64,000 bases of DNA from Verrucomicrobiota bacterium (GTDB lineage Bacteria > Verrucomicrobiota > Verrucomicrobiia > Limisphaerales > UBA11358): positions 323 to 64,322 of the forward strand of contig JBEKOG010000028.1 of the NCBI GenBank assembly GCA_049522015.1. The letters are read 5' to 3'. The position numbers and the translations under genes were made by a program. The notes below the pieces were generated by a model, which had not been told where the DNA came from, did no database searches, and saw nothing but the letters and a program-made list of their open reading frames with translations. Positions 6,056 through 50,998 of the stretch are shown in pieces (position 1 is the stretch's first letter; every line of letters starts with the position of its first letter).

Positions 6056-6062
6056 ATTCTGT

Positions 6063-6130
6063 AGGAGACGAGGTAACGAGTCTCTGACTGAACTCACGGA
6101 AAAAGAGTGAGACTCCTCACGTCGTCTCCT
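6063..6130. repeat. 68-nt palindromic intergenic element (22-nt imperfect arms)
   Basis: aggagacgaggtaacgagtctc at 6063-6084 pairs with gagactcctcacgtcgtctcct at 6109-6130. Lies between dnaJ and rsmE. Confidence 0.7.
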
Positions 6131-6142
6131 CCAATTCAACAA

Positions 6143-6985: not shown

Positions 6986-7066
6986 CTTGCCATCACAAAC
7001 CAGCTGAAGCCCGAACTTCAACTCCCACGCGTTAAACCAAGACCAGCGTTCCACCGATGGCGCGCC

Positions 7067-8317: not shown

Positions 8318-8366
8318 GGCTTGCGTTTGGCGCGGCGCTAGCTACATTTTTTGCAAACAAGAACTT

Positions 8367-9464: not shown

Positions 9465-9467
9465 TTT

Positions 9468-10655: not shown

Positions 10656-10657
10656 CC

Positions 10658-11131: not shown

Positions 11132-11270
11132 TGCTCCGTATTGACTCACGGATAAAGGTTGCCCGGAGCTGGAGCCAGTGACGGTTAACTTTTCTGAAAT
11201 TTTCTTTGTCTTACACGAAATGAAGGTTTAAAGTCGCTCCTGAATTTAGGAGAAACCGGGCTAAAATCTT

Positions 11271-17068: not shown

Positions 17069-17522
17069 CAAAATGTGGCAACCAATAGCAGGGCAAATGC
17101 CACCTATTTAAAAACGGTACCGAAGCAGCTTCACGTTACCTCACGGCCTGCAACTATAAGGGCAGGACAGCTTTCACTTATCATTCCGAACGCTTCAACA
17201 CACGGGCCACCCACATCCAGCGCTGTCCCGGCCAACCACAAGGCAGCTTCGACGAGCATCGCTCAAAGCAACTCTGCGAAACACAGGCTCGCCCATACCG
17301 AAATGCGATGGATGCAGGTTAGACCACGATTCGCGACAGCGAAGAATTCAATTTGGGGCACCCATCTTGTGGCGGGCTTGGGAAGCCAAACGCGACCGCA
17401 TCCGGCTCTGTGGATTTTAGGATTGGCAGGCTTTGAATTTTCTGTCAATCAATCCGCCGTCGCCTTGCTTTGCCGGATTGCCGGCCAATGCGTGTACAAA
17501 GAGAGATTGAATTCATTTCGAC

Positions 17523-18266
17523 ATGACTCGCCTCGACCAGGCACTGGTTGAACGCGGCCTTTGCGAAAGCCGCGAACGCGCCAAACGCGCCATTCTTGCC
17601 GGCCAGGTCCGCATCAATGCCCAGTCCGCGCACAAGCCCAGTGACTCCGTCAAACCCGATGACCGGCTCACTCTGGATGCGGAAGAGAAATTCGTCAGCC
17701 GCGGCGGCCACAAACTGGAACACGCCCTGCGCCATTTTCAACTGGATGTCGCCGGACTCGTGGCGCTCGACCTGGGCGCGTCCACCGGCGGATTCACCGA
17801 TTGTTTGTTGCAACACGGCGCGGCGAAAGTTTTTGCCGTGGACGTTGGCCGGGGGCAATTCGCCTGGAAGCTCCGGCACGACCCCCGCGTCGTCGTCATG
17901 GAGAAGACCAACGCGCGCCATCTGACCGCGGCGCAATTCCCACCGCCATTCACCCCGGCCGATCTGGCCGTGATTGACTGCTCGTTTATTTCGTTGCGAA
18001 ATATTCTGCCCGCCGCCATTGCATTATTGCGGCCCAATGGCAAAATTGTCGCGCTCATCAAACCGCAGTTTGAAGCCGGCAAAGCCGAAGCCGACAAGGG
18101 TCGCGGCGTCATCAGCGACCCGTCGGTGCATGAGCGCGTGCTCAATGAGCTGCGGGAATTCGTCCGCGCGCAACCCGGGTTGCGCTGGCAGGGCGTGGTG
18201 GAATCACCGTTGCTCGGACCGGCGGGCAACAAGGAATTTTTGGCGCTGATTGAAAAAACAAGCTGA
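17523..18266 (+). CDS. tlyA: TlyA-family rRNA (cytidine-2'-O)-methyltransferase
   Basis: S4-like N-terminus (RLDQALVERGL..SRERAKRAI), FVSRGGHKL, and the SAM motif LDLGASTGGFTDCLLQHGA. Confidence 0.92.
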   Translation: MTRLDQALVERGLCESRERAKRAILAGQVRINAQSAHKPSDSVKPDDRLTLDAEEKFVSRGGHKLEHALRHFQLDVAGLVALDLGASTGGFTDCLLQHGAAKVFAVDVGRGQFAWKLRHDPRVVVMEKTNARHLTAAQFPPPFTPADLAVIDCSFISLRNILPAAIALLRPNGKIVALIKPQFEAGKAEADKGRGVISDPSVHERVLNELREFVRAQPGLRWQGVVESPLLGPAGNKEFLALIEKTS

Positions 18267-19134
18267 CAAAATCAAACGCGTCGGTCTCATCGGCAATTTC
18301 GATAAAGCCGCCTGTGCCGACAGCGTTCGCAAGGCCGCGCGACTTATTCAACGTGCCGGACGAAAGGTGTTGTGCGACGCCGGGACCGCCCGGCTGGCCG
18401 GATTGAAAAATTCCGTGTGCGGCGACGCCGCTGCGCTGGCGCGCGAAGTGGACCTGCTGCTGGTGTTTGGCGGCGACGGTACGATGCTGCACGTCGCCCG
18501 CGAAATCGCTGGCTCGTCCACGCCGATGCTCGGGGTCAATATCGGCGGCCTTGGCTTTCTCACCGCCGTGCCGTCGGATGAAATGACCCGCGCTCTGGCG
18601 CGCGTCTGGCGCGGTGAATTCAAATACGAATCCCGCGTTTTGATCGAAGTCGGCGGCCGCTGCCAGGGACGGCGGATTCATGAAACCGCGCTCAATGACA
18701 TTGTGGTCAGCCGCGGCGGGATTTCACGACTCATCAAACTTGACGTAAGCGTGGATGGCGAACTGGTCGCACGCTACCACGGTGATGGATTAATCATCAG
18801 TTCGCCCACGGGTTCAACGGCGTATTCGCTGGCGGCGGGCGGCGCCATTGTTTTGCCCACCGCCGAAGTGTTTGCCCTCACACCGGTTTGTCCGCACACG
18901 CTGTCAAATCGTCCGCTCATTTTACCGCTGGCTTCCACCATTCGCGTCAAGGCCATCAGTTCGCCACCAGCAACGATTTTGAGCGCGGACGGACAGTTCG
19001 TCGCCGAGCTTGGCGCAGGCGATGAGGTGACGATTCGACGCAGCCGGGGCACGGTCCGGCTGATGCATCTGGCGGACAGTTCGTTTTGGGAGGCGTTGCG
19101 CCGCAAACTGCAGTGGCGCGGAGCCTATTTGTGA
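18250..19134 (+). CDS. nadK: NAD(+) kinase
   Basis: GGDGT motif (LLLVFGGDGTMLH), NDIVV, GDGLIISSPTGSTAYSLAAGG. TTG start at 18250 overlaps the tlyA end. Confidence 0.9.
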   Translation: MKKQADKIKRVGLIGNFDKAACADSVRKAARLIQRAGRKVLCDAGTARLAGLKNSVCGDAAALAREVDLLLVFGGDGTMLHVAREIAGSSTPMLGVNIGGLGFLTAVPSDEMTRALARVWRGEFKYESRVLIEVGGRCQGRRIHETALNDIVVSRGGISRLIKLDVSVDGELVARYHGDGLIISSPTGSTAYSLAAGGAIVLPTAEVFALTPVCPHTLSNRPLILPLASTIRVKAISSPPATILSADGQFVAELGAGDEVTIRRSRGTVRLMHLADSSFWEALRRKLQWRGAYL

Positions 19135-19251
19135 AATGAAAAAACAAGTCGAGAGCCGAAAGTCGAGAGTCGAGGGCGCAAAATCACGCCTGCATCCCTA
19201 CTTTCGTCACCCGCCACTCGCCACCCGCCACCCGCCACCCGCCACCTGACC

Positions 19252-20280
19252 ATGGTTCGACTTAAAGACATAGCCCGGTATGCGGGCGTCTCGGTGATGA
19301 CGGTCTCGAAGGCGTTGCGCGACGAGCCGGATGTGTCGGCGGCCACGAAGGCGCGCATCAAGTTGCTGGCGCAACAAATGGGTTACGTACCCGACTCTTC
19401 GGCGCAAGGGCTGCGCAACCGGACGACCAAATTATTCGGCCTCGTCATTCCGTCGAGCACGAATCCGATTTTTGCGCGCGTCATTTTCGCCATCGAGGAA
19501 CGCGCGCACGAACTGGGTTACGACATTTTGCTCACGCATACGTACAACCTGCCGGACCGCGAAGAGGTTTGCATCCGGCGGCTGTTGTCGCGGCGCGTGG
19601 ACGGGCTGTTCATTTCGCCGGTGTATCGTTTTGAGGCCGAGGCGCGAATTTATCAGGAGGTGCTCGCACGCCAAATCCCGACGGTTTTAATCGGGCCGCC
19701 CGCGCCATTTTGCAAATCGTTCGTCAGCGTGGAAATTGATGAACAGGGTGCCAGCTACACCGCGACGCAACATTTGCTGAAGCTCGGCCACAAACGCATT
19801 GCCTATCTCACCGGCTCACCCACGGCGCCGTGGGTGCATGAGCGGTTTGAAGGCTACCGCCGCGCGTTGCGCGAAGCCGGATTGGACGTGGACGACAAGC
19901 TGGTTTTTCAGGCCGGCAGCACCATTGAAGATGGCACCAAAGCCGCGCTGCAAATGCTGAATGAATCGTGTGGTGCAACCGCCATTCAAACCGTCAACGA
20001 CCTCGTCGCCATTGGATGCGCGGACGCCTTGTTCTCAAAAGGTTTGCGGATTCCGGAGGACATTTCGCTCGTGGGTTTCGGCAACATCCTGACGGCGGAA
20101 TATTTTCGCGTGCCGCTGACGACCATCCGCCAGCCAAAGTACCGGCTCGGCATGGCCGCCGTGGAAGCGATGATGAATTTGCTGAAGGGCCAGCACCTTG
20201 AAACGAAACGCCTGCCCGCCGAACTTATCGAGCGCAAGAGCACTGCGCCGCCGCGAACGGTTTCCCATCAAACGGGTTGA
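19252..20280 (+). CDS. LacI-family transcriptional regulator
   Basis: N-terminal HTH (LKDIARYAGVSVMTVSKALR) and a periplasmic-binding-protein-like effector domain. Confidence 0.92.
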   Translation: MVRLKDIARYAGVSVMTVSKALRDEPDVSAATKARIKLLAQQMGYVPDSSAQGLRNRTTKLFGLVIPSSTNPIFARVIFAIEERAHELGYDILLTHTYNLPDREEVCIRRLLSRRVDGLFISPVYRFEAEARIYQEVLARQIPTVLIGPPAPFCKSFVSVEIDEQGASYTATQHLLKLGHKRIAYLTGSPTAPWVHERFEGYRRALREAGLDVDDKLVFQAGSTIEDGTKAALQMLNESCGATAIQTVNDLVAIGCADALFSKGLRIPEDISLVGFGNILTAEYFRVPLTTIRQPKYRLGMAAVEAMMNLLKGQHLETKRLPAELIERKSTAPPRTVSHQTG

Positions 20281-20359
20281 AGCGGCTTTGGCATGCTCTG
20301 ACAGACGCACGCCTCAACTCCGAATTTGTTGGTAATGGTGGGGCGGACGAAATCATGCC

Positions 20360-20465
20360 GGGGTGCGCCCGTCCTCGGGCGCAGCAACCAGCTTCATTCG
20401 AGCCACGGAATATTTACCAACCACCTGTCCATCCCACGTTGCTGCGGCCGGGACGGCCGCACTCC
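20360..20465. repeat. 106-nt palindromic element between convergent lacI-family and thpR genes
   Basis: Arm ggggtgcgcccgtcctcgggcgcagcaac (20360-20388) versus gttgctgcggccgggacggccgcactcc (20438-20465). The arms are imperfect reverse complements. Confidence 0.7.
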
Positions 20466-20497
20466 GTTAACACAGAAATTCAACTCAGAGTTCGGGT

Positions 20498-21100
20498 TCA
20501 AACCGCTCCCAGCCGGAACGCCGCGAGCGAAGTGTAACGCGCCCCGACCGGGAACAATTCGCTTCGGATTATTTCAATTTCATCCGCCGTCCATTCGCCG
20601 AACAGCCGCTTTTCGAGCGACTGCGCTCGGGCGGCCAGGTCCCGGGTATCGGCTGGCCTCGGATTTTTCAGGCGGCCCAACGTGACATGGCCCGTGAAAT
20701 TCTTCTCGCCCGGTTCGGGACTGAACTGGCCGACAGCGGTTTCAATCTGCTGCTGCAAACTCACCAGCCGTCCTTCACGATCGTTGATTCCCACCCAGAT
20801 GACCCGGGGCGAGCGGGAATTCGGGAAAAAACCGACGCCCTCGGCGCGCAAGGACAAGGGCCGGGCATTCCGGCAAACGGCACCGGCCGATTTCTTCAAA
20901 TCTTCGACGCCATCCGCTGGAACATCGCCCAGGAACCGGAGCGTGAGATGAAATTGATCCGACCGGGCCCAGCGGGCCACATCGCGCGACACGAGCGGCT
21001 GCAATTCCTGCTGGACGCGGATGATTTCATCCCGGACCGGCTCCGGAATCGGAATCGCAACGAACAATCGGAGCTTTTCCGTTGAACTGTCGCTAGCCAT
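20498..21100 (-). CDS. thpR: RNA 2',3'-cyclic phosphodiesterase (2H phosphoesterase, LigT/ThpR)
   Basis: Two HxTx motifs (HLTLRFLG and HVTLGRL) at the correct spacing. Confidence 0.9.
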   Translation of the reverse strand: MASDSSTEKLRLFVAIPIPEPVRDEIIRVQQELQPLVSRDVARWARSDQFHLTLRFLGDVPADGVEDLKKSAGAVCRNARPLSLRAEGVGFFPNSRSPRVIWVGINDREGRLVSLQQQIETAVGQFSPEPGEKNFTGHVTLGRLKNPRPADTRDLAARAQSLEKRLFGEWTADEIEIIRSELFPVGARYTSLAAFRLGAV

Positions 21101-38830: not shown

Positions 38831-39505
38831 ATGCAGGACTTCAAACCACTACACGATGCGATCCTTAAAGGAGATGCGAAGACCGCGAAAGCCACCGCCG
38901 AAGCCGCCCTGGCCGCCGGGACCGACCCGATGAAGCTGGTGCAGGAATACATGATGCCCGCGATGGCCGAGGTGGGCCGGCGATTTGAGTGCAACGAGTA
39001 TTTTGTGCCCGAGTTGCTGCTCGCCGCCCGCGCCATGAAAGCCGCGCTCGAACTCATCCGGCCGCTGCTCGCCGCCGGTGGCGTAAAACCCACGGCACGG
39101 GTCGTCCTCGGCACCGTCAAGGGTGACTTGCACGACATCGGCAAAAATCTGGTAGGCGCCATGCTCGAAGGTGGCGGTTATGAAGTCATTGACCTGGGCG
39201 TCAACGTACCGCCGGAACAGTTCGTGGCGGCGGTAAAGGGAAAAGGTGCCGACATCGTGGCCATGTCCGCGTTGTTGACCACCACCATGCCGGCGATGAA
39301 GACAACGCTTGATGCGCTTCAGCAGGCCGGCGTGCGCCAGCAGGTGAAAGTGCTGGTAGGCGGCGCGCCCATCACGCAAAAATACGCGGACGAAATCGGC
39401 GCCGACGGTTACAGCGAAAGCGCGGCGGGCGCGGTCAACGCCGCCGAAAGGGCCATGGGCCGAGTTTCAAAACAGGCGCCACCCCAAGGCAACAAAACCG
39501 TTTGA
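38831..39505 (+). CDS. Stand-alone cobalamin-binding corrinoid protein (B12-binding cap plus Rossmann domain)
   Basis: DxHxxG motif (GDLHDIGKNLV), SALLTTTM and VLVGGAP motifs of MetH-type B12-binding domains. Confidence 0.88.
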   Translation: MQDFKPLHDAILKGDAKTAKATAEAALAAGTDPMKLVQEYMMPAMAEVGRRFECNEYFVPELLLAARAMKAALELIRPLLAAGGVKPTARVVLGTVKGDLHDIGKNLVGAMLEGGGYEVIDLGVNVPPEQFVAAVKGKGADIVAMSALLTTTMPAMKTTLDALQQAGVRQQVKVLVGGAPITQKYADEIGADGYSESAAGAVNAAERAMGRVSKQAPPQGNKTV

Positions 39506-39750
39506 GCAATCCCCTGGGCGCCTCACATGTTTTGCCAGGGAAAACCCCGGCTGCGATCACGCGTCGCGCCCCGCGAGCGTGAACAAAGGTAATTTCCTGA
39601 TCCGGTTGTAGCGTCGGCGCTGTGCGCCGATTGGGTCAAACCGCCCGCCTACACCATGTCCCGATGCAACAGGCAGGCTCGACGCCACACGAAATCGGGA
39701 CGCAACCCGGATAAAATCCCAATTGTCACGTCGAGCTTTCTAAGGTATTC

Positions 39751-41403
39751 ATGTCACGAGTTATGTCGCATCAAACCGCTGCCCCCAATGGCCTGCCTCC
39801 GCGTCGAATCTCCGAAGTCGCCCGCGAACTGGGCCTTAACACCGAGATCATTCTGCCCCACGGCCATTACATCGCCAAAATCCCACTTGCCGAACTGGAG
39901 GCGAGACGAAATCAGCCCAACGGCCGGCTTGTCCTCGTGACGGCCATGACCCCCACCCCGCAGGGTGAAGGCAAGACCACCGCCACCATCGGCCTCGCTG
40001 ACGCACTCCGCCGACTCGGCAAACGCAGCATGTTCTGCCTGCGCGAACCATCGCTCGGGCCCTACTTCGGTATCAAAGGCGGCGGCACCGGCGGCGGCCA
40101 TGCGCAAGTTGTGCCCGCCGAGGATATCAATCTTCATTTTGTCGGCGACATGTACGCCGTGGAGAAGGCCAACAACCTCCTCTGCGCCATGGTGGACAAC
40201 CATCTCCAGCACGGCAACGAACTCGGACTCGACCCGCGCCGCATCGTCCTGCGCCGGGTCATTGACCTGAACGAACGCTCGCTGCGCGACATCGTCATCG
40301 GCCTGGGCGGCCCCAAAAACGGGGTGCCGCGGCGCGACGGCTTCAACATCACGCCCGCCTCCGAAGTCATGGCCATCTTGTGCCTCGCTACGGATTTTAG
40401 CGATCTCGGCGAGCGCATGACCAGAATGGTTGTCGGTTTCACCTACAAGGGCGAACCAGTCCGCGCCGAGGCCATGCAGGCCGTGGGCGCGATGCAGGTG
40501 TTGCTGCGCGACGCCATTCATCCGAACCTCGTGCAGTCCTTGGAAGGCACGCCAGCCTTCGTCCATGGCGGCCCGTTCGCCAATATCGCTCAGGGCACGA
40601 ACACCTGCGTGGCCACGCGCCTCGCGTTGAAACTGGCCGATTATGTCGTCACCGAGGCCGGGTTCGCCACCGACTTGGGGGCGGAAAAATTCTTTCACAT
40701 CAAATGCCGCATTGCCGGGCTGAATCCGGCCGCGGCGGTCATCGTGGTCACCACCAAGGCCATCGCCTACCACGGCGGCTTTACGGACAGCGGCGGGCTT
40801 GGCAACCTCGCCAAGCACATCGAGAACATCCGCCTCTTCGGTTTGGATCCCGTGGTGTGCATTAGCAACTTTCCAGATGACAAGCCGGCGGACTACGCAC
40901 GGATCATCAAATTCTGCACCAAACTAGGCGTGGAAGCGGTCGTGTCCGAACACTTCGACAAAGGCGGCGCCGGCGCGACAGAACTGGCCGCCGCCGTGCT
41001 GCGCACCGTCCACCGGAGCCGGCGAAAGAAACTCCGTTTTCTCTACCCGCTCGCCGCGCCGATCGAGAAGAAGATCGAAACGCTGGCGACCCAGATCTAC
41101 GGCGCGGATGGCGTGGATTATGACCGGGGTGTACAAAGCAGTATTGGGGTGTTCAACAAACATGGGTTCGGCAATCTGCCGATTTGCGTGGCCAAAACCG
41201 CCATGTCACTCTCAGACGATCCCGAACGGCGCGGCCGGCCGAGAGGCTTCCGGATCAAGGTGAACGAACTGCGCCTTTCCGCAGGGGCGGGTTTCATCGT
41301 GGCGGTTTGCGGCAATATCGTGACCATGCCCGGATTGCCGAAGGTGCCCGCCGCAGCGCACATGAAGATGATCTCCGGCAAACGGGCAACGGGTCGCACC
41401 TGA
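39751..41403 (+). CDS. fhs: Formate--tetrahydrofolate ligase
   Basis: TPTPQGEGKTT P-loop, LHFVGDMYAV..., FANIAQG. Full length, ~550 aa. Confidence 0.95.
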   Translation: MSRVMSHQTAAPNGLPPRRISEVARELGLNTEIILPHGHYIAKIPLAELEARRNQPNGRLVLVTAMTPTPQGEGKTTATIGLADALRRLGKRSMFCLREPSLGPYFGIKGGGTGGGHAQVVPAEDINLHFVGDMYAVEKANNLLCAMVDNHLQHGNELGLDPRRIVLRRVIDLNERSLRDIVIGLGGPKNGVPRRDGFNITPASEVMAILCLATDFSDLGERMTRMVVGFTYKGEPVRAEAMQAVGAMQVLLRDAIHPNLVQSLEGTPAFVHGGPFANIAQGTNTCVATRLALKLADYVVTEAGFATDLGAEKFFHIKCRIAGLNPAAAVIVVTTKAIAYHGGFTDSGGLGNLAKHIENIRLFGLDPVVCISNFPDDKPADYARIIKFCTKLGVEAVVSEHFDKGGAGATELAAAVLRTVHRSRRKKLRFLYPLAAPIEKKIETLATQIYGADGVDYDRGVQSSIGVFNKHGFGNLPICVAKTAMSLSDDPERRGRPRGFRIKVNELRLSAGAGFIVAVCGNIVTMPGLPKVPAAAHMKMISGKRATGRT

Positions 41404-41500
41404 TCACCGCCGGCGGCGAAACCAATTTCTGATCGGCAGCCGGCAACGCCCGTCACCGGCGGCGGGTCCGCACCGGGTTTTGACCCGGGACTTGCCTCAA

Positions 41501-42379
41501 TTACGAATAAAATTCCTTCACCCTCATGATGGTGTCAAAGCCATCCAGTTCCAGCACATCCTTCAAGCATTGCATGGCCGGATGGTCCTCCGGCAAGAGC
41601 GAATAATTCCGCTTCACCGAGCCAATGATGGTGTTAAATCCCATCGGCACGGCCAGGGTCAGAAAAGCGCTCTCCAGCGGCCCTTTTACCGGCGAACCAT
41701 CCGCCCGTTTCGACGGCAGCATCACGGTAAAATTGCTCAGCCCCACGGACATGTTTACACCTTTGAGATCGGCATCCTGATGAATCAGTTTGATCGCATT
41801 GATCAATCGCTTGAAATCGCCTTCCGCATCGCTTCCAATCGGAATGATGCCCGGGTCGAGAATGATCTGATCGTTCGTTGCATTGTTGATGCGTTCCCGC
41901 GCGATATTGACCATGACCTTCGCGGTGGCATGCGTTTCCCCGGCGGTCTTGTTCATTTTCAAGACGCCATTTTGGTCCACTCCTTCGGTAATCAGCAGCA
42001 CGGGAACAAAGGGCTGCTTTGCCTGGATGTCAAACATTTCCAATCGCGCCTGGGAAATTGAATTCAATATGGGCTTGCGTCCCCCGGCACGCCCTGGATC
42101 GTACGCTTCCAGCCCGGCGGCGGCGATTTCCGGGTCAGGAGTGTCAATCGAAAGGGGCAGCGAAATGTGTTGTTGGATTTTTCGCACAACGTCCGCCATA
42201 AATCCAGGGGAACGCAGGCCGACATTCACGTCGATGTAGGCAGCACCGTTTTCCCCTTGGGATTTCGCCAGCTCGATGATGCCGGCCATGTCGTTTTTTT
42301 CGAATAACACATGGGTGGAAGGGACGGAATCATTTATTGATTCGCCGATGATCGTAAGGCCCGGGATGGTCATTGCCAT
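41501..42379 (-). CDS. Methyltetrahydrofolate:corrinoid methyltransferase (pterin-binding domain protein, MetH/AcsE-like)
   Basis: TIIGESINDS and AAYIDVNVG motifs of the pterin-binding TIM barrel. ATG at 42379 (MAMTIPGL) is preferred over 42427. Confidence 0.8.
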   Translation of the reverse strand: MAMTIPGLTIIGESINDSVPSTHVLFEKNDMAGIIELAKSQGENGAAYIDVNVGLRSPGFMADVVRKIQQHISLPLSIDTPDPEIAAAGLEAYDPGRAGGRKPILNSISQARLEMFDIQAKQPFVPVLLITEGVDQNGVLKMNKTAGETHATAKVMVNIARERINNATNDQIILDPGIIPIGSDAEGDFKRLINAIKLIHQDADLKGVNMSVGLSNFTVMLPSKRADGSPVKGPLESAFLTLAVPMGFNTIIGSVKRNYSLLPEDHPAMQCLKDVLELDGFDTIMRVKEFYS

Positions 42380-42618
42380 GAATGCTTGTTGCTGACAAAT
42401 GGTTGGCAGGGACAAACAGAAAAACAATCAAATTCAATCTTGGACAGGCACTTTCCCGCACCGTCGATCCCCAAATCCAGAATCTGCGCGACTTCGCGCT
42501 TGATCCCGGCCCAGCGGATGACATCATGGCCGTGATAATGTTGAAAACGTACCCGACCAAAAGGGGTTCTCTCTTGACCGTGCAGGCATTAAAATCAATT
42601 TCTCATCAGTGTAAATAG

Positions 42619-44202
42619 ATGCAAACATTGCAGGAAAAACTGTCCCAGACTTCCCAGTTTCTCGTCGGGACCGAAGTGGTTTCCGTGCGCGGTTCGATGG
42701 CTGAACAGAGCGCGGTAAAGGCAGGCGCTTTTGCCAAACAACTCGTCAAGTGTCCGGCCATTGATTGGATTTCGATTACCGACAACGCCGGCGGCAATCC
42801 GCAGTTGGCACCCCAGGCCTTGGGCAAACCCATCCTGGATGCCGGCAAGGAAGTCGTCATTCATCTCACCTGCAAGGACCTCAATCGCAACGGCCTGGAG
42901 AGTGAAGCCTGGCTCCTGAACAGCGAAGGGTTTCACAGTATTCTGGCCATGACCGGTGATCATCCATCCTCGGGCATCGAAGGTCTTGCGAAGCCGGTGT
43001 TCGACATTGATTCCGTCGGCCTGATTTCGATGTTGAACAAAATGAACCAGGGTTTCGATCCGAAGGACGGCGATGGCAACAGCAAGGGGCAGCGGCTGGA
43101 AAAAACCCGGTTCTGCATCGGAGCCGTCACGACGAATTACAAACTGCGCGAGGGCGAAGTAATGCCGCAATACTTCAAACTTCGGAAGAAAATCGAGGCC
43201 GGCGCGCAGTTCATCATCAACCAGATCGGCTTCGACTCCCGCAAGGACAGCGAACTGCGGCTTTACATGGATCAGCACGGGATGAAGCCTGTCCCGCTGA
43301 TCGGCAATGTCTATCTGTTAAACCCCCGGGTGGCCCAACTCTTTCACGAGGGCCGGATTCCCGGCATCGTCCTGACGCAACCGCTGCTGGACTTGTGCCT
43401 GAAGCACGGGCAGTCGGCCGATGGCGGCCGGTCGTTCTTCTGCGAATTCGCCGCCAAGCGAATCGCCATCTATCGTGGTCTGGGCTATCGCGGCGTGTAC
43501 CTGGCCGGCATGCACAATTTTGCCGTTATTGAAAGAATCCTGGAAATCGAACGCACGTTCGCTCCTGACGACTGGAAACAATTCGCGCGGGAAATCAGGT
43601 TCTCCCGGCCCGGCGAATATTTCCACTACGCCGAAAATCCGGCGACGGGACTGGCCGATGTCGCCGCCCCAAATCCGGGCGCCAAAATAAAATCAAAACA
43701 CGTCGGCCCCGTTTATCATCTGTCCAAGTGGACCCATGACCTCATGTTCAGCCCGGGCCACGCGCTGACGAACTGTGGCGCGTATCTTTGCCGGCATTCG
43801 GCAGACCCCAGTCAAGGTCCCAAACCGATGCGGGTTTTGGAGCATCTCAGCAAGGCCGTCCTGTTCCAGTGCAAGGACTGCGGCGATTGTTCGCTCCCGG
43901 AAATCGCGTTTCTGTGTCCTGAATCCCAATGCGCGAAGAACCAGCGCAATGGTCCGTGCGGCGGCACGCGCGAAGGCCGCTGCGAAGTGGACCGCTATGG
44001 CGATTGCATCTGGCTGCGCGCCTACGAACGTCTGAAACACGAAGGCAGAGAACAAGACTTGTTGCAGCATGTGCTCGTAGTACAAAACCAGGGACTACGC
44101 GGCACGTCTTCCTGGGCCAACTTCTGGCTCGGCCGCGATCACACGGCAAAAAAGGACCATCCCACCCCGCCCGCTGAAGCGGATTCCACCGCCAAACATT
44201 AA
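42619..44202 (+). CDS. Methylenetetrahydrofolate reductase fused to a Cys-rich MetV-like C-terminal domain
   Basis: The N-terminal ~300 aa is MTHFR-like (ISITDNAGGNP, HLTCKD, LAMTGD). The C-terminus has CKDCGDCSLPEIAFLCPESQCAKNQRNGPCGG, which I recognise as the MTHFR_C/MetV-type motif. Confidence 0.8.
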   Translation: MQTLQEKLSQTSQFLVGTEVVSVRGSMAEQSAVKAGAFAKQLVKCPAIDWISITDNAGGNPQLAPQALGKPILDAGKEVVIHLTCKDLNRNGLESEAWLLNSEGFHSILAMTGDHPSSGIEGLAKPVFDIDSVGLISMLNKMNQGFDPKDGDGNSKGQRLEKTRFCIGAVTTNYKLREGEVMPQYFKLRKKIEAGAQFIINQIGFDSRKDSELRLYMDQHGMKPVPLIGNVYLLNPRVAQLFHEGRIPGIVLTQPLLDLCLKHGQSADGGRSFFCEFAAKRIAIYRGLGYRGVYLAGMHNFAVIERILEIERTFAPDDWKQFAREIRFSRPGEYFHYAENPATGLADVAAPNPGAKIKSKHVGPVYHLSKWTHDLMFSPGHALTNCGAYLCRHSADPSQGPKPMRVLEHLSKAVLFQCKDCGDCSLPEIAFLCPESQCAKNQRNGPCGGTREGRCEVDRYGDCIWLRAYERLKHEGREQDLLQHVLVVQNQGLRGTSSWANFWLGRDHTAKKDHPTPPAEADSTAKH

Positions 44203-44296
44203 AACCGAACCGCCCGATCCGGCCTGACTTTCGCTGGAAAGTAGCCGGAAAGCATCGCACCGGTGACGCTGGAGACGGGGTGGTTCAAACACAGGC

Positions 44297-45829
44297 TCAA
44301 GCCGGGAAACGCATTTCCTCCGCGTAGGTGTCTTGAAAATCCTTGTCCTCATTGAGCGCCACGTGTTCGGTGCGGCGCGCGACGGCGTCCCAGCCGGCCG
44401 GGTCTTCGAACAACGCCCGTTTCGCCCCCAGCAGCGCGGTGTTGCCGGCGGGAACGACGCGATGAATGGGAACGCGCAGCAGACCAATCCGTTGGGCGCT
44501 GGTCCGGTTGACATAATTGCCGAACGCACCGGCCAGGTGAAGCTGGTGGATGTCATCGAGTGAAGCGCCGAATCGCGCTGCCAGCATCCGCAGTCCGGTG
44601 GCGATGGCCCCTTTGGCCATCTGCAATTCGCGCACGTCCGCCGCCGAAAGGGTCACGGCGCCGGCCAGCGGCATTCCGCGATCGGACGTCAGCCGGCCAT
44701 CGGGCCGGATCCAGCCGAGTTCCAAGCCCGCCGCCACCGCGTCCACCAGTCCGCTGCCGCACAATCCGCGTGGCGCGCCACCGCCAATCACGCGGCACGC
44801 CACCGAGCCATTTTGCGCGCGTACCTCGCTGATGGCGCCCGTGGCCGCGCGCATGCCCATCGAGATGCGCGCCCCCTCGAACGCCGGCCCCGCCGCCGTG
44901 GAGGTGCACAACATCCGCTGGTGGTTGCCGACCACCACCTCGCCGTTGGTGCCGAGGTCCATCAGCGCCGTCAATTCGCGGCTTTCGTGCAAACCGGTGG
45001 CCACGATGCCGGCCAGAATGTCCGAACCAACAAAGCCGCCGATGCACGGCAGGAATTCCACCACCGTCTTCTCCGGCAGATTCCAACCCAACTCACGCGC
45101 CGAAAACCGGAACCGTCCCGGCTGTTGTGGCTCGAAGGGATGCCCGGCCAGCGGTGCGACGCTGATGCCGCAGAACAGGTGGTGCATGACGGTGTTGCCG
45201 ACAATAATTATCTTATTCAAATCATTACCGGCATCCGAACTTTTGTCCCACGTGGGACAAAGTTTTGCACGGCGCGAAACCAGTTGGCTTGCCATTCCGC
45301 CGAGCTGTTCGCGCACCTGCCGCTGCAAATCCGGCTGGCCGCCACATAATGCAAATTCGACGCGGCTCATGATGTCGCCGCCGTGACGGGCCTGCGCGTT
45401 CAACGCCGTGACCACCGACAGCACGCCGCCGGTCTTCAAATCGAGGAGTTGCGCGGCAATGGTGGTGGTGCCCAGGTCAATGGCCACGCCGAGGCCCTCG
45501 CGCGGCGCAAACTTGAAAGTGGACTGATCACTCAGGATGGGCATCTCCCATTGCGCAAGCTCGAGTTTGAGATCACCCGTGATGGAATGCCGGCACGCCA
45601 GACGCCAGCCACCGGCAAGCTCCGCGCCCGTCAGCATTTTTTTTTCCTCCTCGCCGACAGGCAGAATGCCTTTCAAGGCTTTGACGCGGCAGCCTTTGCA
45701 ACGCCCGCGTCCACCGCAGGGGAACTCGACTCCCTGCGCGAAAAGAACGTCCTGCAACTGTGTGCCGGAAGCGACCTCCAGTTTGAGATCGGCGGGCGAA
45801 AGTTCGAGGGTATGCGTTGATGGGGTCAT
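44297..45829 (-). CDS. Corrinoid reductive activase (RACo/RamA-like: 2Fe-2S ferredoxin domain plus ASKHA/DUF4445 ATPase)
   Basis: N-terminal plant-type ferredoxin cysteines (CGGRGRCKGCRV) and ASKHA phosphate motifs (DLGTTTIAAQL, DLGTNGEVV). Confidence 0.8.
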   Translation of the reverse strand: MTPSTHTLELSPADLKLEVASGTQLQDVLFAQGVEFPCGGRGRCKGCRVKALKGILPVGEEEKKMLTGAELAGGWRLACRHSITGDLKLELAQWEMPILSDQSTFKFAPREGLGVAIDLGTTTIAAQLLDLKTGGVLSVVTALNAQARHGGDIMSRVEFALCGGQPDLQRQVREQLGGMASQLVSRRAKLCPTWDKSSDAGNDLNKIIIVGNTVMHHLFCGISVAPLAGHPFEPQQPGRFRFSARELGWNLPEKTVVEFLPCIGGFVGSDILAGIVATGLHESRELTALMDLGTNGEVVVGNHQRMLCTSTAAGPAFEGARISMGMRAATGAISEVRAQNGSVACRVIGGGAPRGLCGSGLVDAVAAGLELGWIRPDGRLTSDRGMPLAGAVTLSAADVRELQMAKGAIATGLRMLAARFGASLDDIHQLHLAGAFGNYVNRTSAQRIGLLRVPIHRVVPAGNTALLGAKRALFEDPAGWDAVARRTEHVALNEDKDFQDTYAEEMRFPA

Positions 45830-46578
45830 GCTGGTTCCACACCGATGAGTTGCGCGTTATGACGCAGGCCAACTCGCTCGCCCGGCTTCAACTTGAGAAA
45901 TTCGCGGTCATTCCAATCCGCGTTCAACAATCGCCGCAGCCAGCCCAGGTCGCCGGGGAGCTTTTCAAATTTCCAGCCGTGTGCCCGGGCGTTTTTCCGC
46001 GCAGCTTTCTCCCATTTTGCCGCTTCAGGCACCGGCGGGGCGATGAAGGCAAGCCGTTCATAGTGCCGGGTGAGGTTGTTCAATTGTTCGAGCAGATAAC
46101 CGGCATTTTCATCGCCGTATTTTTCAGCCAGTTGTTCGCGTGTGACGGTGGAGCCGGGTCCGAAGGGAAAATTCTGCTGGCGGACATCGCCATTGGCCGG
46201 TGAATTCTCCAGCCAGCCCGCGCTCTGAAAGTAGGTGCCCGGTTGTGTTTCCAGTTGCGCGAGATAACACCGGCTGCTGCCGAGAAGCATCCCGATGCAG
46301 TCGTGCGCGCGCGGGATGGCAACGGGCAGCGCCCGCGCCTCCAGCCCCACAATGCCGCGATTGCAAAGCCCGTAACCAATGGCAATGGCATCACATTGAC
46401 CGGTGGTCACTCCATCAATCGCGCCTTGAAGCGCGGCGCGTAGATTTTCAGCGGACCCTTCGTGGAGTCCCATTTCCAGGTGCTGGAAAGTGACCTCGGT
46501 TTTCGCCCCGGCGGCAAGCATTTCCAGTTCCCGTTGGAAGACAGGACAGGCGATGACATGCAACCGCAGGCGGTTCAT
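45826..46578 (-). CDS. DUF1638-domain protein
   Basis: LHVIACPVFQRELE start and ~250 aa size fit DUF1638. 4-nt overlaps with both neighbours. Confidence 0.65.
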   Translation of the reverse strand: MNRLRLHVIACPVFQRELEMLAAGAKTEVTFQHLEMGLHEGSAENLRAALQGAIDGVTTGQCDAIAIGYGLCNRGIVGLEARALPVAIPRAHDCIGMLLGSSRCYLAQLETQPGTYFQSAGWLENSPANGDVRQQNFPFGPGSTVTREQLAEKYGDENAGYLLEQLNNLTRHYERLAFIAPPVPEAAKWEKAARKNARAHGWKFEKLPGDLGWLRRLLNADWNDREFLKLKPGERVGLRHNAQLIGVEPA

Positions 46579-47474
46579 AAATTATGCTTTTCGCGGAGCA
46601 GTTTGTGCAGTTCGCTGATAAATTCCGGCGACGTTCCGCAGCAACCACCGATGAAATTCGCGCCGGCTTCGAGAACCGCCGGAACGTGACCGGCAAATTC
46701 CACCGCCGTCGTCGTATAAACAGATTTGCCGTCCCTGATTTGCGGCAGCCCGGCGTTGGCCTTGATCCAGACCGGGTGTCCGCCCGCCGCGGCTTTCAAC
46801 CGCGCACAAATTTTCACGAACCCCGCGATGCCCTGGCCGCAATTCGCGCCGACGACATCGGCTCCGGCTTCCAGAAGACCTGCCACCGCCTGTTCCGGTG
46901 TGGCGCCCATCATCGTGCGGTCTTTGTCCTTGCCGGAATCGAACACCATGCAGGCGACCACCGGCAAACCGGCGGCTTTCGCCGCCGTTGTGGCAATTCT
47001 GGCTTCCTCCAAATCCAGCATGGTTTCCACGACCAGCCCGTCGGCCCCGCCGCGCGCCAAAGCTTGCGCCTGTTCGGCGAACGCGGCGCGCAATTCATCT
47101 TCGGTCACGTCACCGTTCATGAGCATTTTGCCGCCTGGCCCAATCGAGCCAAAAACCAGTGCGCATTTGTTCGCCGCTTCGCGCGAGATGCGGGTGCCCG
47201 CTTCGTTGATTTCTTTGACGCGATCCGCGCCGCCACCCCCGGCCAGGCGCAGGCGGTTGGCGCCGAACGTGTTCGTCAAAATAATTTGCGAACCGGCTTC
47301 GACGTAGGCACGCGCGACGGCGGTGACTTTTTCAGGACGGGTCAGGTTCCAGAGGTCCGGCACTTCACCCGGCGCGAGTCCGCGCGCCTGGAGTTGCGTG
47401 CCCCAAGCGCCATCTGTGAGCACCGGGCCTTGGGCGATCAATTGTTGAATGAGTGGATTAAGCGTCATAACCAA
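46575..47474 (-). CDS. Homocysteine S-methyltransferase domain protein (MetH N-terminal module, stand-alone)
   Basis: LTDGAWGTQL, ILTNTFGAN, GANCG, and GGCCGTSPEFI (zinc-binding cysteines) of the Hcy-binding TIM barrel. Confidence 0.85.
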   Translation of the reverse strand: MVMTLNPLIQQLIAQGPVLTDGAWGTQLQARGLAPGEVPDLWNLTRPEKVTAVARAYVEAGSQIILTNTFGANRLRLAGGGGADRVKEINEAGTRISREAANKCALVFGSIGPGGKMLMNGDVTEDELRAAFAEQAQALARGGADGLVVETMLDLEEARIATTAAKAAGLPVVACMVFDSGKDKDRTMMGATPEQAVAGLLEAGADVVGANCGQGIAGFVKICARLKAAAGGHPVWIKANAGLPQIRDGKSVYTTTAVEFAGHVPAVLEAGANFIGGCCGTSPEFISELHKLLREKHNL

Positions 47475-47656
47475 GGGCTTTCACCGGTTGTGTTACCAGG
47501 CTGGTTTCAGTTCATCCAAATATTTTCGGTTCTTCCAGCAAAATTCGCCGCGCCCGTTCACGTGCCCGGCCTTTTGGCGGTGCCAGCCGGAACAAAGGGC
47601 TTTCCGAAACAATGTCCTAATGGCATGATTATTGCGCAATTTTGGAATCGGTTGAA

Positions 47657-50002
47657 ATGAAAAAAAAGATTTTCAGATTCTCCACATTGCGAATGCAGTT
47701 GGTTGGCAGCGTGTTTTTGCTCATCACTCCGGCCTGGTTGCTGATGTATATTTTTGACCTGCCAATGAGCGGGTTTGTGGTGGGGGTATTGGCGCTGGCA
47801 GCCTCGTGGTTCGGCGGGGAACACTTCATTTTACGCGAGGTGCGCGCCTTGTCCAGTGTGGCCCAGCGGATTGCAGATGGAGATTTGAGCGCCCGCACCG
47901 GACTGAAACCCTCGGAAAACGAACTCGGTCAACTCACAAAGGGTTTTGACCTGATGGCCGAATCGCTGGAGCGGCATGCCAAGAATCTCGAAAGCGCGGA
48001 AAAAAACCTGTTGAATCGCACGTTCCAGCAAACCGTTGTCGCCGCGCTCGGACAATTTGCGCTGACCAACAGTGACCTCGATGCGCTGCTGAATCAAACC
48101 GTCATGCTTGTGGCGCAAACACTGGGCGTGGAATACTCCGCCGTGTTCGAGCAATTGCTGGCCGGTTCACTGCGGCTGCAAGCCGGCGTTGGCTGGAAAC
48201 CGGAGTACAACCGGCAGACTTCCCTGCCCGGAAATGAGGATTCCCCGATTGTCTCTGCTTTGAAATCCGGCGACCCCGTTGTCATCGCCGATCTGAAGGC
48301 CGAAACGCGAATTTCCGCGTCGCCGTTTCTGGCCGAGCACGGTGTTGTCAGCGGTATCACCGTCGCCATTCCCACTCACGACCGGCCCTATGGAATGCTG
48401 GGCATTTACAGCACGCACGGGCGGAAATTCAATTCGGACGAAGTGCAATTTCTCATGGCCGCCGCCACCGCCGTCGGCCTGGCCGTCGAGCGCAAACGGG
48501 CCGATGCCGAACTGCAAAAACTCGCCGCGTTCGTCCAGTTGAATCCGGACGCAGCGATGGAACTGAACGAAAACGGGACCATCACCTATTTCAACGAAGC
48601 CGCGCAACAACTCGCCGCCTCCGTGCAAAGAAATCAGCCTGGTGAAATATTGCCACCGGACATTGACCGCATCATCCGCGAATGCCTCGCCAGCGGACAA
48701 AGCAAGGTGCGCCAGGAAATCAAAATGGAAGGGCGCACATTTTCGTGGTCGGTCCATCCCGTCTTGCCGAGCAACGTGGTGCATTGCTACATCGAAGACA
48801 TCACCGAACGGCTGAGTTTGGAGGCGCAGTTGCGTCAGGCGCAAAAGATGGAATCCATCGGCCAGCTCGCCGCCGGTGTTGCGCATGACTTCAATAACAT
48901 GCTCACGATCATTCAGGGGCATTCCAGTTCGCTGCTCGCCAGGCCGACATTGCCGCCGGAGGTGGTTGACTCGGTTCAAGCCGTCTATTTTGCCGCCGAA
49001 CGCGCCGCGGGTCTCACGCGCCAATTGCTCATGTTCAGCCGCAAGAATGTCATGCAGCCCGAGCTGCTCGATTTGCAGAAAGTTGTCGGTAACATGAGCA
49101 AGATGTTGGAGCGTCTCCTCGGGGAAACCATCACGCTTGAATTTCAGCCGGCGGTGGAAAATCCATTTGTTCAGGGCGACTGCGGCATGATCGAGCAGGT
49201 CGTGATGAACCTTTCCCTCAACGCCCGCGACGCCATGCCGCGCGGCGGCAGGCTGACCATCGGCGTCGAGACCATGATCATTGATGCCGCTTTCATCGAA
49301 ACCCATCCCCAGGCGCATGCGGGACGCTTTGTTCGTTTGCGCGTCACGGACACAGGTATCGGCATGGATTCTGCCACGCTGGGCCGCATCTTCGAACCGT
49401 TTTTTACCACGAAAGACATCGGCAAGGGCACCGGCCTCGGCCTCGCGACTGTTTATGGCATTATCAAACAGCACGAAGGCTGGCTCGAAGTGAACAGCGA
49501 ACCCGGCAAAGGCAGCACGTTCGACGTGTTTCTTCCCGCCAGCGACAAAGTGCCCGCCTTCGCAGAAGAAGCGGCCCCCGCTGCCCCTGTCGCCGGCGGC
49601 TCGGAAACCATTCTCATCGTTGAAGACGAACCGATCCTGCGGAGCATGGCCCGCGACATCCTCGAAGAGTGCGGCTATCGGATTCTGGAAGCGTCATCCG
49701 GCAAGGAAGCGCTTGACGTATGGAATCAGCGCGCGAATGAAATTGATTTGCTCCTGACCGACATGGTGATGCCCGATGGCATTTCCGGCGCGGACCTCGT
49801 CGAAAAATTGCAGACCAGCCAGCCCCGCCTGAAGGTTGTCTTTACCAGCGGCTATACCGCCAATGAAGTGAACCAGAAAATGCTGGCCCGGACCCGCGCG
49901 AGCTTTCTCGCAAAACCCTACACCCACGCCGAACTCGCCAAAACCGTCCGCGATTGCCTCGACCAAAACAACAGCAGTGATGCGGCGGCTGTGGATAATT
50001 GA
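47657..50002 (+). CDS. Hybrid sensor histidine kinase/response regulator (TM-HAMP-GAF-PAS-HisKA-HATPase-REC)
   Basis: H-box AAGVAHDFNNMLT, the G-boxes DTGIGM and GTGLGLA, and a C-terminal receiver (ILIVEDEP...LLLTDMVMP...K). Confidence 0.92.
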   Translation: MKKKIFRFSTLRMQLVGSVFLLITPAWLLMYIFDLPMSGFVVGVLALAASWFGGEHFILREVRALSSVAQRIADGDLSARTGLKPSENELGQLTKGFDLMAESLERHAKNLESAEKNLLNRTFQQTVVAALGQFALTNSDLDALLNQTVMLVAQTLGVEYSAVFEQLLAGSLRLQAGVGWKPEYNRQTSLPGNEDSPIVSALKSGDPVVIADLKAETRISASPFLAEHGVVSGITVAIPTHDRPYGMLGIYSTHGRKFNSDEVQFLMAAATAVGLAVERKRADAELQKLAAFVQLNPDAAMELNENGTITYFNEAAQQLAASVQRNQPGEILPPDIDRIIRECLASGQSKVRQEIKMEGRTFSWSVHPVLPSNVVHCYIEDITERLSLEAQLRQAQKMESIGQLAAGVAHDFNNMLTIIQGHSSSLLARPTLPPEVVDSVQAVYFAAERAAGLTRQLLMFSRKNVMQPELLDLQKVVGNMSKMLERLLGETITLEFQPAVENPFVQGDCGMIEQVVMNLSLNARDAMPRGGRLTIGVETMIIDAAFIETHPQAHAGRFVRLRVTDTGIGMDSATLGRIFEPFFTTKDIGKGTGLGLATVYGIIKQHEGWLEVNSEPGKGSTFDVFLPASDKVPAFAEEAAPAAPVAGGSETILIVEDEPILRSMARDILEECGYRILEASSGKEALDVWNQRANEIDLLLTDMVMPDGISGADLVEKLQTSQPRLKVVFTSGYTANEVNQKMLARTRASFLAKPYTHAELAKTVRDCLDQNNSSDAAAVDN

Positions 50003-50008
50003 CGCCGC

Positions 50009-50998
50009 ATGGAAACCCGCGCGCAGGGAGATGTCACGATCGCCATTTTGAGCGACATCCATTACGCTGGTCCCGCCGAGCGGGCCCGCGGCGAAGATTA
50101 TGAATTTCGCACCATCGTCAATCCCCTGCTCCGCGCGGTCGCGCGCGCCTACCGGCATTTGATCTGGATGCGTCATCCGCTCGACCAGGGACGGCAACTC
50201 GACCGTTTTCTGGCCGAAATCGGGCCGTTGGATTATCTCGTGGCCAATGGGGATTATCCGTGTGACACCGGGTTTGTGGGCGTAAGCGACACCGGCTCGT
50301 TTCAAAGCGCGCAGGACTGTCTCGGCAAGCTCCGCGCGAAATTCGGCGACCGCGCGCGGTTCACCATTGGCGACCATGAACTTGGGAAACTGACCCTGTT
50401 TGGCGGGAAGGGAGGAATGCGGCTCGCCAGTTGGCATTGCGCCACGCAGCAGCTTGGCCTGCAACCGTTCTGGAAACTGGCCATCGGCCGTTACCTGCTC
50501 ATGGGCGTGGCCTCGCCCCTCATCGCCCTGCCCGCAAACAAGGCGGACATGCCGCCGGAGGAGTGGCCGGAATGGCAGCCATTGCGCGAGGCGCACCTCG
50601 CCGAAATCCGCGCTGCCTTTGATGCGCTCCAACCGGAGCAACGCGTGTTATTGTTCTGTCACGACCCCACGGCCCTGCCGTTTCTGTGGCGCGAGGAACC
50701 AGTGCGCCGCCGGTTGCCGCAGGTGGAACAGACCATCATCGGGCATCTGCACACGCGGCTGATTTTATGGAAAAGCCGGGTGCTGTCGGGGATTCCGCCC
50801 ATCCGGTTTCTGGGCCGGAATGTCAACCGTTTCAGTTCAGCGCTGCACGAGGCGCATCTTTGGTGGCCATTTCGGGTGCGGCTCTGCCCGGCCTTGTCCG
50901 GCACCGAACTGCTGAACGACGGCGGTTATTACACCGTGCAAATTGATCCCACAGCGAACCACCCGGCGCGATTCATCTTTCATCCGTTGCCACGGTAA
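50009..50998 (+). CDS. Calcineurin-like metallophosphoesterase
   Basis: IAILSDIHYAG, NGDY, CHDP and IIGHLH motifs. Confidence 0.75.
   Translation: METRAQGDVTIAILSDIHYAGPAERARGEDYEFRTIVNPLLRAVARAYRHLIWMRHPLDQGRQLDRFLAEIGPLDYLVANGDYPCDTGFVGVSDTGSFQSAQDCLGKLRAKFGDRARFTIGDHELGKLTLFGGKGGMRLASWHCATQQLGLQPFWKLAIGRYLLMGVASPLIALPANKADMPPEEWPEWQPLREAHLAEIRAAFDALQPEQRVLLFCHDPTALPFLWREEPVRRRLPQVEQTIIGHLHTRLILWKSRVLSGIPPIRFLGRNVNRFSSALHEAHLWWPFRVRLCPALSGTELLNDGGYYTVQIDPTANHPARFIFHPLPR

Follow-up and report, generated by a model that had tools for sequence, protein, structure and literature searches.

In a 64-kb stretch of a Limisphaerales contig (hereafter the window, to which all positions refer unless a locus is named) we identified a seven-gene cluster at positions 38831-47474 whose products probably make up a modular, cobalamin-dependent methionine synthase of the split-MetH type (MtgC/MtgD/MtgE) known from the literature. 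Domain identities, motifs, operon structure and conserved neighbourhoods were observed directly. The assignment draws on the good fit of domain content, motifs and operon structure, and on a homocysteine (Hcy)-binding zinc methyltransferase (HcyMT) that is far closer to the Hcy domain of MetH than to betaine-homocysteine methyltransferase (BHMT) or to 5DML, a stand-alone homocysteine S-methyltransferase used for comparison. It draws further on conserved neighbourhoods in other genomes, where HcyMT, a RACo-type activase and a corrinoid protein (CP) surround DUF1638 and a pterin-binding methyltransferase (MeTr) lies beside methylene-tetrahydrofolate reductase (MTHFR), and on published genetics that establish the same five-part system in Phaeobacter and, for MtgC and MtgD, in Ruegeria. 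Homology and gene context also support that the RACo/RamA-type activase and the DUF1638 protein stand in for the S-adenosylmethionine (SAM)-dependent reactivation domain of MetH. As the split-MetH concept is already published, the finding is confirmatory, and what is new is the host and the gene neighbourhood. A first-pass annotation, made from the letters of this DNA, had summarised earlier work on split MetH with RamA-like and DUF1638 proteins correctly (PMC5764234; PMC12478193); the system that it described is real and was correctly read, but its novelty is below what that annotation implied.

Catalytic modules and gene organization

In Phaeobacter inhibens, transposon fitness data indicate that methionine prototrophy needs three MetH pieces (PGA1_c13370, c16040 and c13350), a RamA-like protein of ferredoxin-DUF4445 composition (c15200) and a DUF1638 protein (c13340), mutants of which share the methionine-rescued phenotype (Price et al. 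2018, PMC5764234). The catalytic parts were later named MtgC, MtgD and MtgE, and in Ruegeria pomeroyi MtgC and MtgD are required for methionine synthesis as well as for glycine betaine demethylation (Mausz et al. 2025, PMC12478193). The cluster in the window contains the same five stand-alone parts, i.e. a PF02574 protein, a PF00809 protein, a B12 cap plus B12 domain, a ferredoxin-ASKHA protein and DUF1638. Pfam and NCBIfam domains confirmed these five genes where the first-pass annotation had placed them (Table 1), together with the interleaved formate-tetrahydrofolate (THF) ligase (Fhs) and fused MetF-MetV reductase that it had also reported.

Table 1. Genes of the cluster, with strand, length of the product and domain matches.
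Product	Position	Strand	Length	Domain matches
Corrinoid protein (CP)	38831..39505	+	224 aa	PF02607 (B12-binding_2) 84 bits; PF02310 (B12-binding) 105 bits
Formate-THF ligase (Fhs)	39751..41403	+		PF01268 743 bits; NF010030 744 bits (cut-off 652)
Pterin-binding methyl-THF:corrinoid methyltransferase (MeTr, MtgD-like)	41501..42379	-	292 aa	PF00809 54 bits
Fused MetF-MetV methylene-THF reductase	42619..44202	+	527 aa	PF02219 48 bits; PF12225 (DUF5981/MetV) 91 bits
RACo/RamA-type reductive activase	44297..45829	-	510 aa	PF00111 (Fer2); PF17651 (RACo_middle); PF14574 (RACo_C_ter)
DUF1638 protein	45826..46578	-	250 aa	PF07796 114 bits
Hcy-binding zinc methyltransferase (HcyMT, MtgE-like)	46575..47474	-		PF02574 (S-methyl_trans) 226 bits

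The three catalytic proteins share modules and motifs with canonical MetH (E. coli, T. thermophilus) and with core MetH of the T. maritima type, whose reactivation protein is separate, and they cover successive parts of the MetH model TIGR02082, namely positions 7-311 (HcyMT), 344-583 (MeTr) and 649-848 (CP), with 145, 44 and 149 bits, respectively (cut-off 1011). Positions 850-1182 of the model, which represent the reactivation domain, were matched by no protein of the window. The Hcy, folate, cap-B12 and activation modules thus do not occur together in one polypeptide of the cluster as they do in canonical MetH. The first-pass annotation had noted the lack of a MetH reactivation domain in the cluster, and this was confirmed for the window, as PF02965 was found neither in a six-frame translation of the 64 kb nor in Pfam scans; the Phaeobacter and Ruegeria systems lack it likewise. 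Unlike MetH, the modules of the cluster are separate polypeptides encoded on different strands, and their reactivation is predicted to be of the ATP/RACo rather than the SAM/flavodoxin type.

Among solved structures, the Hcy and folate modules are nearest to T. maritima MetH. For HcyMT, the Hcy domain of this enzyme was the best match in the PDB (157 bits, full-length), compared with about 70 bits for BHMT and 48 bits for 5DML. The zinc-binding cysteines, whose absence the first-pass annotation had named as grounds for giving up the assignment, are in place: C212 (GANCG) and C278-C279 (GGCCGT) align with the Zn-site motifs of T. maritima MetH. CP carries the motifs D99-x-H101-x-x-G104 (DxHxxG), S146-x-L148 and G177-G178. 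Its best match in the PDB is the Moorella corrinoid protein 1Y80 (197 bits), with MetH B12 domains at approximately 105 bits; like its counterparts in Phaeobacter and Ruegeria, CP is closer to methylotrophic corrinoid proteins than to the B12 domain of MetH.

MeTr aligns with the folate domain of T. maritima MetH with retention of IGExIN, DVN, PLSID, DPG and GLSN, and it matches D. hafniense 4O0Q at 37 bits. More than 3000 homologues were found, the top 120 of which are at least 75% identical, and they carry the annotation 'cobalamin-dependent methionine synthase I'. MeTr of the window is also 82% identical to the protein encoded at 10001-10873 of locus L090, on a contig attributed to Bacteroidota, where the neighbouring Fhs, MetF, HcyMT and CP are 49%, 27%, 42% and 50% identical to those of the window. 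For MeTr alone, this identity points to horizontal transfer or to very strong constraint.

The last three genes of Table 1 had been described as a tightly overlapping operon, and they are indeed joined by 4-nt ATGA overlaps at 46575-46578 and at 45826-45829. HcyMT, DUF1638 and RACo form a predicted translationally coupled operon in which DUF1638 would be coupled on both sides. For HcyMT, an ATG start at 47468 is more likely than the TTG at 47474 (public gene calls have 297 aa), and Fhs may start at 39763 instead of 39751 (546 aa in public gene calls). CP begins 14 nt downstream of recO. An identical gene arrangement was found on at least six independent metagenome contigs and is therefore not an assembly artefact.

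From homology and gene context we infer the following reaction chemistry, direction of flux and role of DUF1638. MeTr would move the methyl group of 5-methyl-THF to the Co(I) of the free-standing corrinoid protein. The methyl-Co(III) protein would then dock on HcyMT, where the Zn-activated homocysteine thiolate would take the methyl group, yielding methionine and Co(I). Accidental oxidation of Co(I) to Co(II) would be reversed by the RACo-type activase at the expense of ATP, with its [2Fe-2S] domain as the source of the electron; this repair would stand in for the flavodoxin and SAM reaction of MetH. DUF1638 would act in this repair, most likely as a Cys/His-ligated metal or Fe-S module that feeds electrons to the activase or gates them. 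MetF-MetV and Fhs would supply methyl-THF out of the formyl/methylene-THF pool, with FolD encoded elsewhere.

The RACo-type activase and DUF1638

The activase matches RACo of C. hydrogenoformans (3ZYY) with 202 bits in three segments that cover all three regions of that protein. Its cysteines C38, C44, C47 and C79 align with the RACo cluster cysteines. With a four-Cys [2Fe-2S] domain, a RACo middle domain and a C-terminal ASKHA domain, it has the composition of RACo, of Methanosarcina RamA and of O-demethylase activators, and it is predicted to be ATP-dependent. The protein is shorter than RACo (510 versus 631 aa), and about 115 RACo residues (roughly 90-203) have no counterpart in it. Whereas the partner of RACo is the corrinoid iron-sulphur protein (CFeSP), that of the window activase would be the small, predicted His-on CP, with DUF1638 encoded alongside. 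The system appears in this respect similar to the three-component systems for O-demethylation, glycine betaine and methylamine, composed of methyltransferase I (MT I), CP, methyltransferase II (MT II) and activating enzyme, which also use a shuttling CP, a pterin-binding MT II and an ATP-dependent activase; the difference is that an Hcy-binding module fills the second methyltransferase position.

RACo was also encountered with other forms of MetH, namely together with a protein of the reactivation domain family Met_synt_B12 (L113, 1256-7915) and directly upstream of an 830-aa core MetH (L164, 376-4340). RACo-type activation therefore serves several MetH architectures, and DUF1638 is not always present.

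DUF1638 was analysed across 150 representatives of the family, each standing for one cluster at 50% identity. All of them have C11, C72 and C94; H39 and D93 are conserved with one or two exceptions, and H92 occurs in about 90%. In the AlphaFold model of the window protein (pLDDT 91.3) the conserved residues directly follow strands 1 to 4 in the alpha/beta domain at the N-terminus, such that C11, H39, C72, D93 and C94 may make up one site. A Foldseek comparison of the model with the PDB gave no match at E<=0.001 (best TM-scores 0.25-0.37), a profile search against PDB sequences found nothing, and no function is assigned to DUF1638 in the literature searched. The idea that DUF1638 is a remote homologue of the MetH activation domain was rejected (hhalign probability 0.1%). 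A tblastn search for DUF1638 on plasmids of cultured bacteria gave no match.

A group of approximately 25 long proteins among the 150 representatives (P0144, P0150, P0158 and some 20 more; about 900-960 aa) has DUF1638 as the N-terminal domain. In all eight that were scanned (two full-length, six shorter forms), hydantoinase-type ASKHA ATPase domains follow, i.e. Hydant_A_N and, in the longer ones, Hydantoinase_A as well. The single fusion of this kind whose genomic context was examined (L087, 6001-8847) had no corrinoid genes nearby and was uninformative. Other fusions include P0220, which joins GGDEF, HD and DUF1638 domains, and P0125 (L089, 371-2053), a 560-aa HcyMT-DUF1638 protein from a single 2.3 kb contig; a frameshift in the usual 4-nt overlap may have created the latter artificially, and it was not used as strong evidence.

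We then surveyed the gene neighbourhoods of DUF1638 by scanning one genome per species with a 12-sequence alignment, which gave 538 confirmed relatives, of which 80 loci were kept. These loci come mostly from Acidobacteriota, Planctomycetota, Verrucomicrobiota, Ignavibacteriota, Armatimonadota and Kiritimatiellia. A methyltransferase of the URO-D family (Pfam-confirmed) was present in 51 of the 80 loci and adjacent on the same strand in 35. The corresponding numbers were 46 and 10 for the corrinoid protein, 40 and 21 for RACo, and 35 and 30 for the Hcy methyltransferase, all of them lower bounds, as many loci end at contig ends. The gene order (URO-D)-CP-HcyMT-DUF1638-(URO-D)-RACo recurs, and the order of CP, HcyMT, DUF1638 and RACo is repeated across phyla. 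In Acidobacteriota, Planctomycetota and Verrucomicrobiota, URO-D genes of the MtaA/MT I-like kind often share an operon with CP, HcyMT and RACo (examples: L022, 10842-15075 and 17289-20047; L007, 5263-6531; L008, 7888-8916). These neighbours suggest that methyl donors besides methyl-THF can feed such corrinoid proteins, URO-D being absent from the window itself. On the same evidence, modular methionine synthases linked to URO-D methyltransferases seem to be common in the three phyla.

One split-MetH/URO-D locus, L090 of Bacteroidota, is flanked by genes for glycoside hydrolases of families GH43, GH115 and GH88 and for an esterase (6796-8076 and 17270-20873). GH115 enzymes free 4-O-methylglucuronic acid from xylan. 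It is a speculative thought that the URO-D methyltransferase of this locus may demethylate methyl-ether sugars.

A second scan, with the Hcy protein as the centre and metagenome contigs as the source, likewise yielded 80 loci. DUF1638 was present in seven of these and the MetH activation domain in 15, and no locus had both. The activation domain was found free-standing beside HcyMT and CP, free-standing beside an 800-aa core MetH, or within full-length MetH. As Met_synt_B12 was found in none of the 80 DUF1638-centred loci, the two were never together in the 160 loci of both scans. Free-standing Met_synt_B12 proteins of about 250 aa occur in other split loci (L090, L121, L111, L113, L129, L140, L158 and L169). 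In L090 (14713-17083) and L121 (4275-6648) the gene lies directly downstream of HcyMT, a slot that is held by DUF1638 in the window and in L107 and L108. This pattern has the appearance of an in-situ non-orthologous displacement. The exchange in the same slot supports a role of DUF1638 in cofactor reactivation, and the strong link to URO-D indicates that this role is not specific to methionine synthase.

We tentatively propose that DUF1638 is an unrecognised Cys/His metal or Fe-S module which, together with RACo, replaces the MetH reactivation domain and is a general accessory of free-standing corrinoid proteins; as a whole, this proposal is possible rather than probable. The module and its replacing role are suggested by the near-invariant signature, by the location of its residues at strand ends of a confident model with no solved structural relative, by the mutual exclusion with Met_synt_B12 in the same gene slot, by the position of DUF1638 N-terminal to ASKHA domains, and by the published genetics, in which it is required for methionine synthesis. 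The idea of a general accessory stems from its link to URO-D-type methyltransferases, which is more frequent than that to HcyMTs.

Methyl supply and competing explanations

The MetF-MetV protein consists of an N-terminal MTHFR barrel (PF02219, residues 48-232) and a Cys-rich MetV part at the C-terminus (PF12225, residues 407-485) with eight cysteines from C418 to C463. The presence of both domains in one protein makes it a predicted MetVF-type reductase. It resembles acetogen MetVF (PMC8760232, PMC8515935) in combining a MetF barrel with Cys-rich MetV, and differs in being a one-protein fusion in the order MetF then MetV, in its divergent MetF part (48 bits on PF02219) and in its context of methionine synthesis.

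In every locus fetched via a close MeTr homologue, MTHFR adjoins MeTr, be it as separate MetV and MetF (L090, L174, L180), as MetF with a Fer4/CCG subunit (L177), or as fused MetFV (the window and L092). L092 is from a close relative and carries the same MetF-MetV fusion at 86% identity, with Fhs, MeTr and MetFV all at 85-87%. There, gatB and murC flank the MetFV/MeTr/Fhs trio, and CP, HcyMT, DUF1638 and RACo are all absent within 10 kb of it. The trio without synthase genes indicates that the window juxtaposes two separately conserved modules: Fhs-MeTr-MetFV is a module of its own that is here placed beside the synthase genes.

Associations of the two modules are also found elsewhere. Fhs, MetFV and MeTr accompany HcyMT-DUF1638 in L016, L022, L041 and L043; L015 and L072, in which the same scan detected no MeTr, have Fhs and MetFV with HcyMT-DUF1638. 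In L043 (Verrucomicrobiota, 1222-11643), eight same-strand genes encode FolD, an 811-aa MetF-MetV-MeTr triple fusion, a channel of the formate/nitrite family, Fhs, CP, RACo, DUF1638 and HcyMT. L043 is a fuller version than the window of a gene path from formate to the methyl group of methionine, and its set of genes for this path is complete. The first-pass annotation had drawn this path for the window with only FolD missing. Its genes are indeed present and FolD was not found; the direction of flux, as that annotation gave it, is deduced, and carbon passing through MeTr, MetFV and Fhs could flow towards methionine, starting from formate, or towards formate, starting from methyl groups.

This leads to the main rival of a modular synthase, a bidirectional methyl hub that is mainly catabolic. 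Methyl groups would reach CP via URO-D/MtgB-type enzymes encoded elsewhere and would be passed by MeTr to THF, to be oxidised to formate by MetFV, FolD and Fhs with a gain of ATP, leaving methionine as a side branch. Reactions of Fhs and of MetVF-type reductases are reversible, and the formate channel of L043 could export formate. In Ruegeria, MtgC and MtgD act in both directions and a MetF paralogue beside mtgD is induced for methyl oxidation; in other marine bacteria, mtg-type genes often lie together, along with C1-oxidation genes (PMC12478193). In addition, URO-D methyltransferases are the commonest neighbours of DUF1638 and flank CP in L007-L009. However, the 64-kb window contains no substrate-specific methyltransferase of the kinds searched: tblastn and phmmer for URO-D and Pfam scans of open reading frames (ORFs) revealed no MT I of the URO-D, MttB/PF06253 or MtaB type. 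The sole non-folate methyltransferase of the cluster is the Hcy-binding protein, the cluster sits amid housekeeping genes (recO, ybeY, proS), and L092 keeps Fhs-MeTr-MetFV between gatB and murC. We consider a mainly catabolic hub unlikely for this cluster, albeit the most serious of the alternatives.

Several observations weigh against the assignment of the cluster as a modular methionine synthase. CP scores 213 bits on the NCBIfam model MtgC_2 (cut-off 370), and HcyMT scores 238 bits on PRK07534, the alphaproteobacterial 'BHMT' or MtgE model (cut-off 338), both below cut-offs that serve as a proxy for orthology, so that the two proteins are only putative orthologues of the characterised Rhodobacterales proteins. 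The PF00809 match of MeTr, at 54 bits against a cut-off of 25.5, is weak. In L007-L009, the nearest relatives in the DUF1638 scan, an URO-D gene lies beside CP, and MeTr, MetFV and Fhs were not found in the DNA fetched for them, so CP may serve more than one methyltransferase. As L092 keeps its module apart, the two modules of the window may in part be neighbours by chance. A search with Rfam revealed no SAM, B12 or THF riboswitch that would back a biosynthetic role. Finally, all assignments for this organism are based on homology and context.

A further explanation is that HcyMT is a corrinoid-independent homocysteine S-methyltransferase, using SAM, S-methylmethionine or betaine, that happens to lie beside an unrelated activation system. 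SAM- and S-methylmethionine-dependent enzymes are found among stand-alone PF02574 proteins of about 300 aa, and the model on which HcyMT reaches 238 bits is named after betaine-homocysteine methyltransferase. The far higher score with the Hcy domain of MetH than with 5DML or BHMT, the 4-nt overlaps that join HcyMT to DUF1638 and the corrinoid activase, and the recurrence of the order of CP, HcyMT, DUF1638 and RACo across phyla render this explanation very improbable, and the alphaproteobacterial 'BHMT' model family has itself been argued to be MtgE (PMC12478193). That CP, MeTr and RACo belong to an acetyl-CoA pathway of the Wood-Ljungdahl type can be dismissed almost entirely: MeTr gives weak matches to AcsE-type and CdhD models, RACo matches AcsV, and Fhs and MetVF are enzymes of the methyl branch, but the AcsE and AcsV scores are all far under cut-offs, the window contains neither carbon monoxide dehydrogenase/acetyl-CoA synthase nor a large or small CFeSP subunit, and CP, with its His-on DxHxxG motif, belongs to the small corrinoid proteins of the MetH/MtxC type and is not a CFeSP.

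Host, surroundings and implications

The nearest named homologues of the cluster proteins are from metagenome-assembled genomes of Limisphaerales and Verrucomicrobiia (MeTr 94% identical, DUF1638 74% and 67%), and the best match among species-representative genomes in the DUF1638 scan was a Verrucomicrobiia genome of the SPRUCE series (67%). The host is a soil or peat member of the Limisphaerales (Verrucomicrobiota). The other large ORFs of the window encode housekeeping functions according to Pfam (grpE-dnaJ, secretion ATPases, NAD kinase, lpxB, gpsA, phoH-ybeY-recO, proS, an M16 peptidase and aconitase). In the 64 kb, six-frame hidden Markov model (HMM) and phmmer searches, tblastn and Pfam revealed no Met_synt_B12, no URO-D, no FolD and no duplicate of any of the parts. 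Queries in the six-frame search were HMMs of DUF1638 and Met_synt_B12 (the latter built in this analysis) and seed sequences of URO-D, FolD, the formate channel and hydantoinase, with at least eight URO-D seeds drawn from related loci for the tblastn/phmmer scan.

A divergent gene for a hybrid histidine kinase (HAMP-GAF-PAS-HisKA-HATPase-REC, 47642-50002) adjoins the HcyMT operon and is followed by a weak metallophosphatase-like gene (50009-50998). The kinase was rejected as a part of the system, since the adjacency is confined to the same species and absent in relatives. Rfam detected no RNA family at gathering thresholds in the window and none at E<=1 in the 38-48 kb region. A regulatory or leader RNA is likewise unsupported; the regions upstream of MeTr-MetFV and fhs are conserved only with L092 and not with distant MeTr loci. 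Counts from a promoter/terminator scan matched the expectation from shuffled sequence. The divergent region between MeTr and MetFV (42380-42618, 239 nt) is approximately 94% identical to that of the close relative over the 100 nt nearest the MeTr start; compared with that relative it is longer by a 73-nt insertion, and it is unconserved in more distant relatives. A 78-aa ORF called in this region by one pipeline (42382-42618) is probably spurious, for it contains no Cys, is not kept as an ORF in the close relative and is affected by the 73-nt indel.

Compared with the systems of Phaeobacter and Ruegeria, whose hosts are marine Alphaproteobacteria, the genes are here clustered in a soil or peat Verrucomicrobiota, whereas the locus tags of the marine strains point to several separate sites. 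No MtgB (glycine betaine) methyltransferase lies near this cluster, unlike in the marine systems, and the cluster is joined to Fhs and a Fe-S MetF-MetV reductase where Ruegeria has a plain MetF paralogue.

Methionine synthase is a central B12-dependent enzyme, and how bacteria without a SAM-dependent reactivation domain repair its cofactor is understood only in part. The locus offers a compact set of three catalytic modules, activase and DUF1638 from an abundant soil and peat lineage. The window is free of additional substrate methyltransferases, which make the marine systems more complicated, and is thus well suited as a template for reconstitution in vitro. The comparative data narrow the question of what DUF1638 does to a sharper, testable hypothesis, and the modular synthases linked to URO-D methyltransferases are relevant to the demand for B12 and the cycling of methyl groups in soil and peat.

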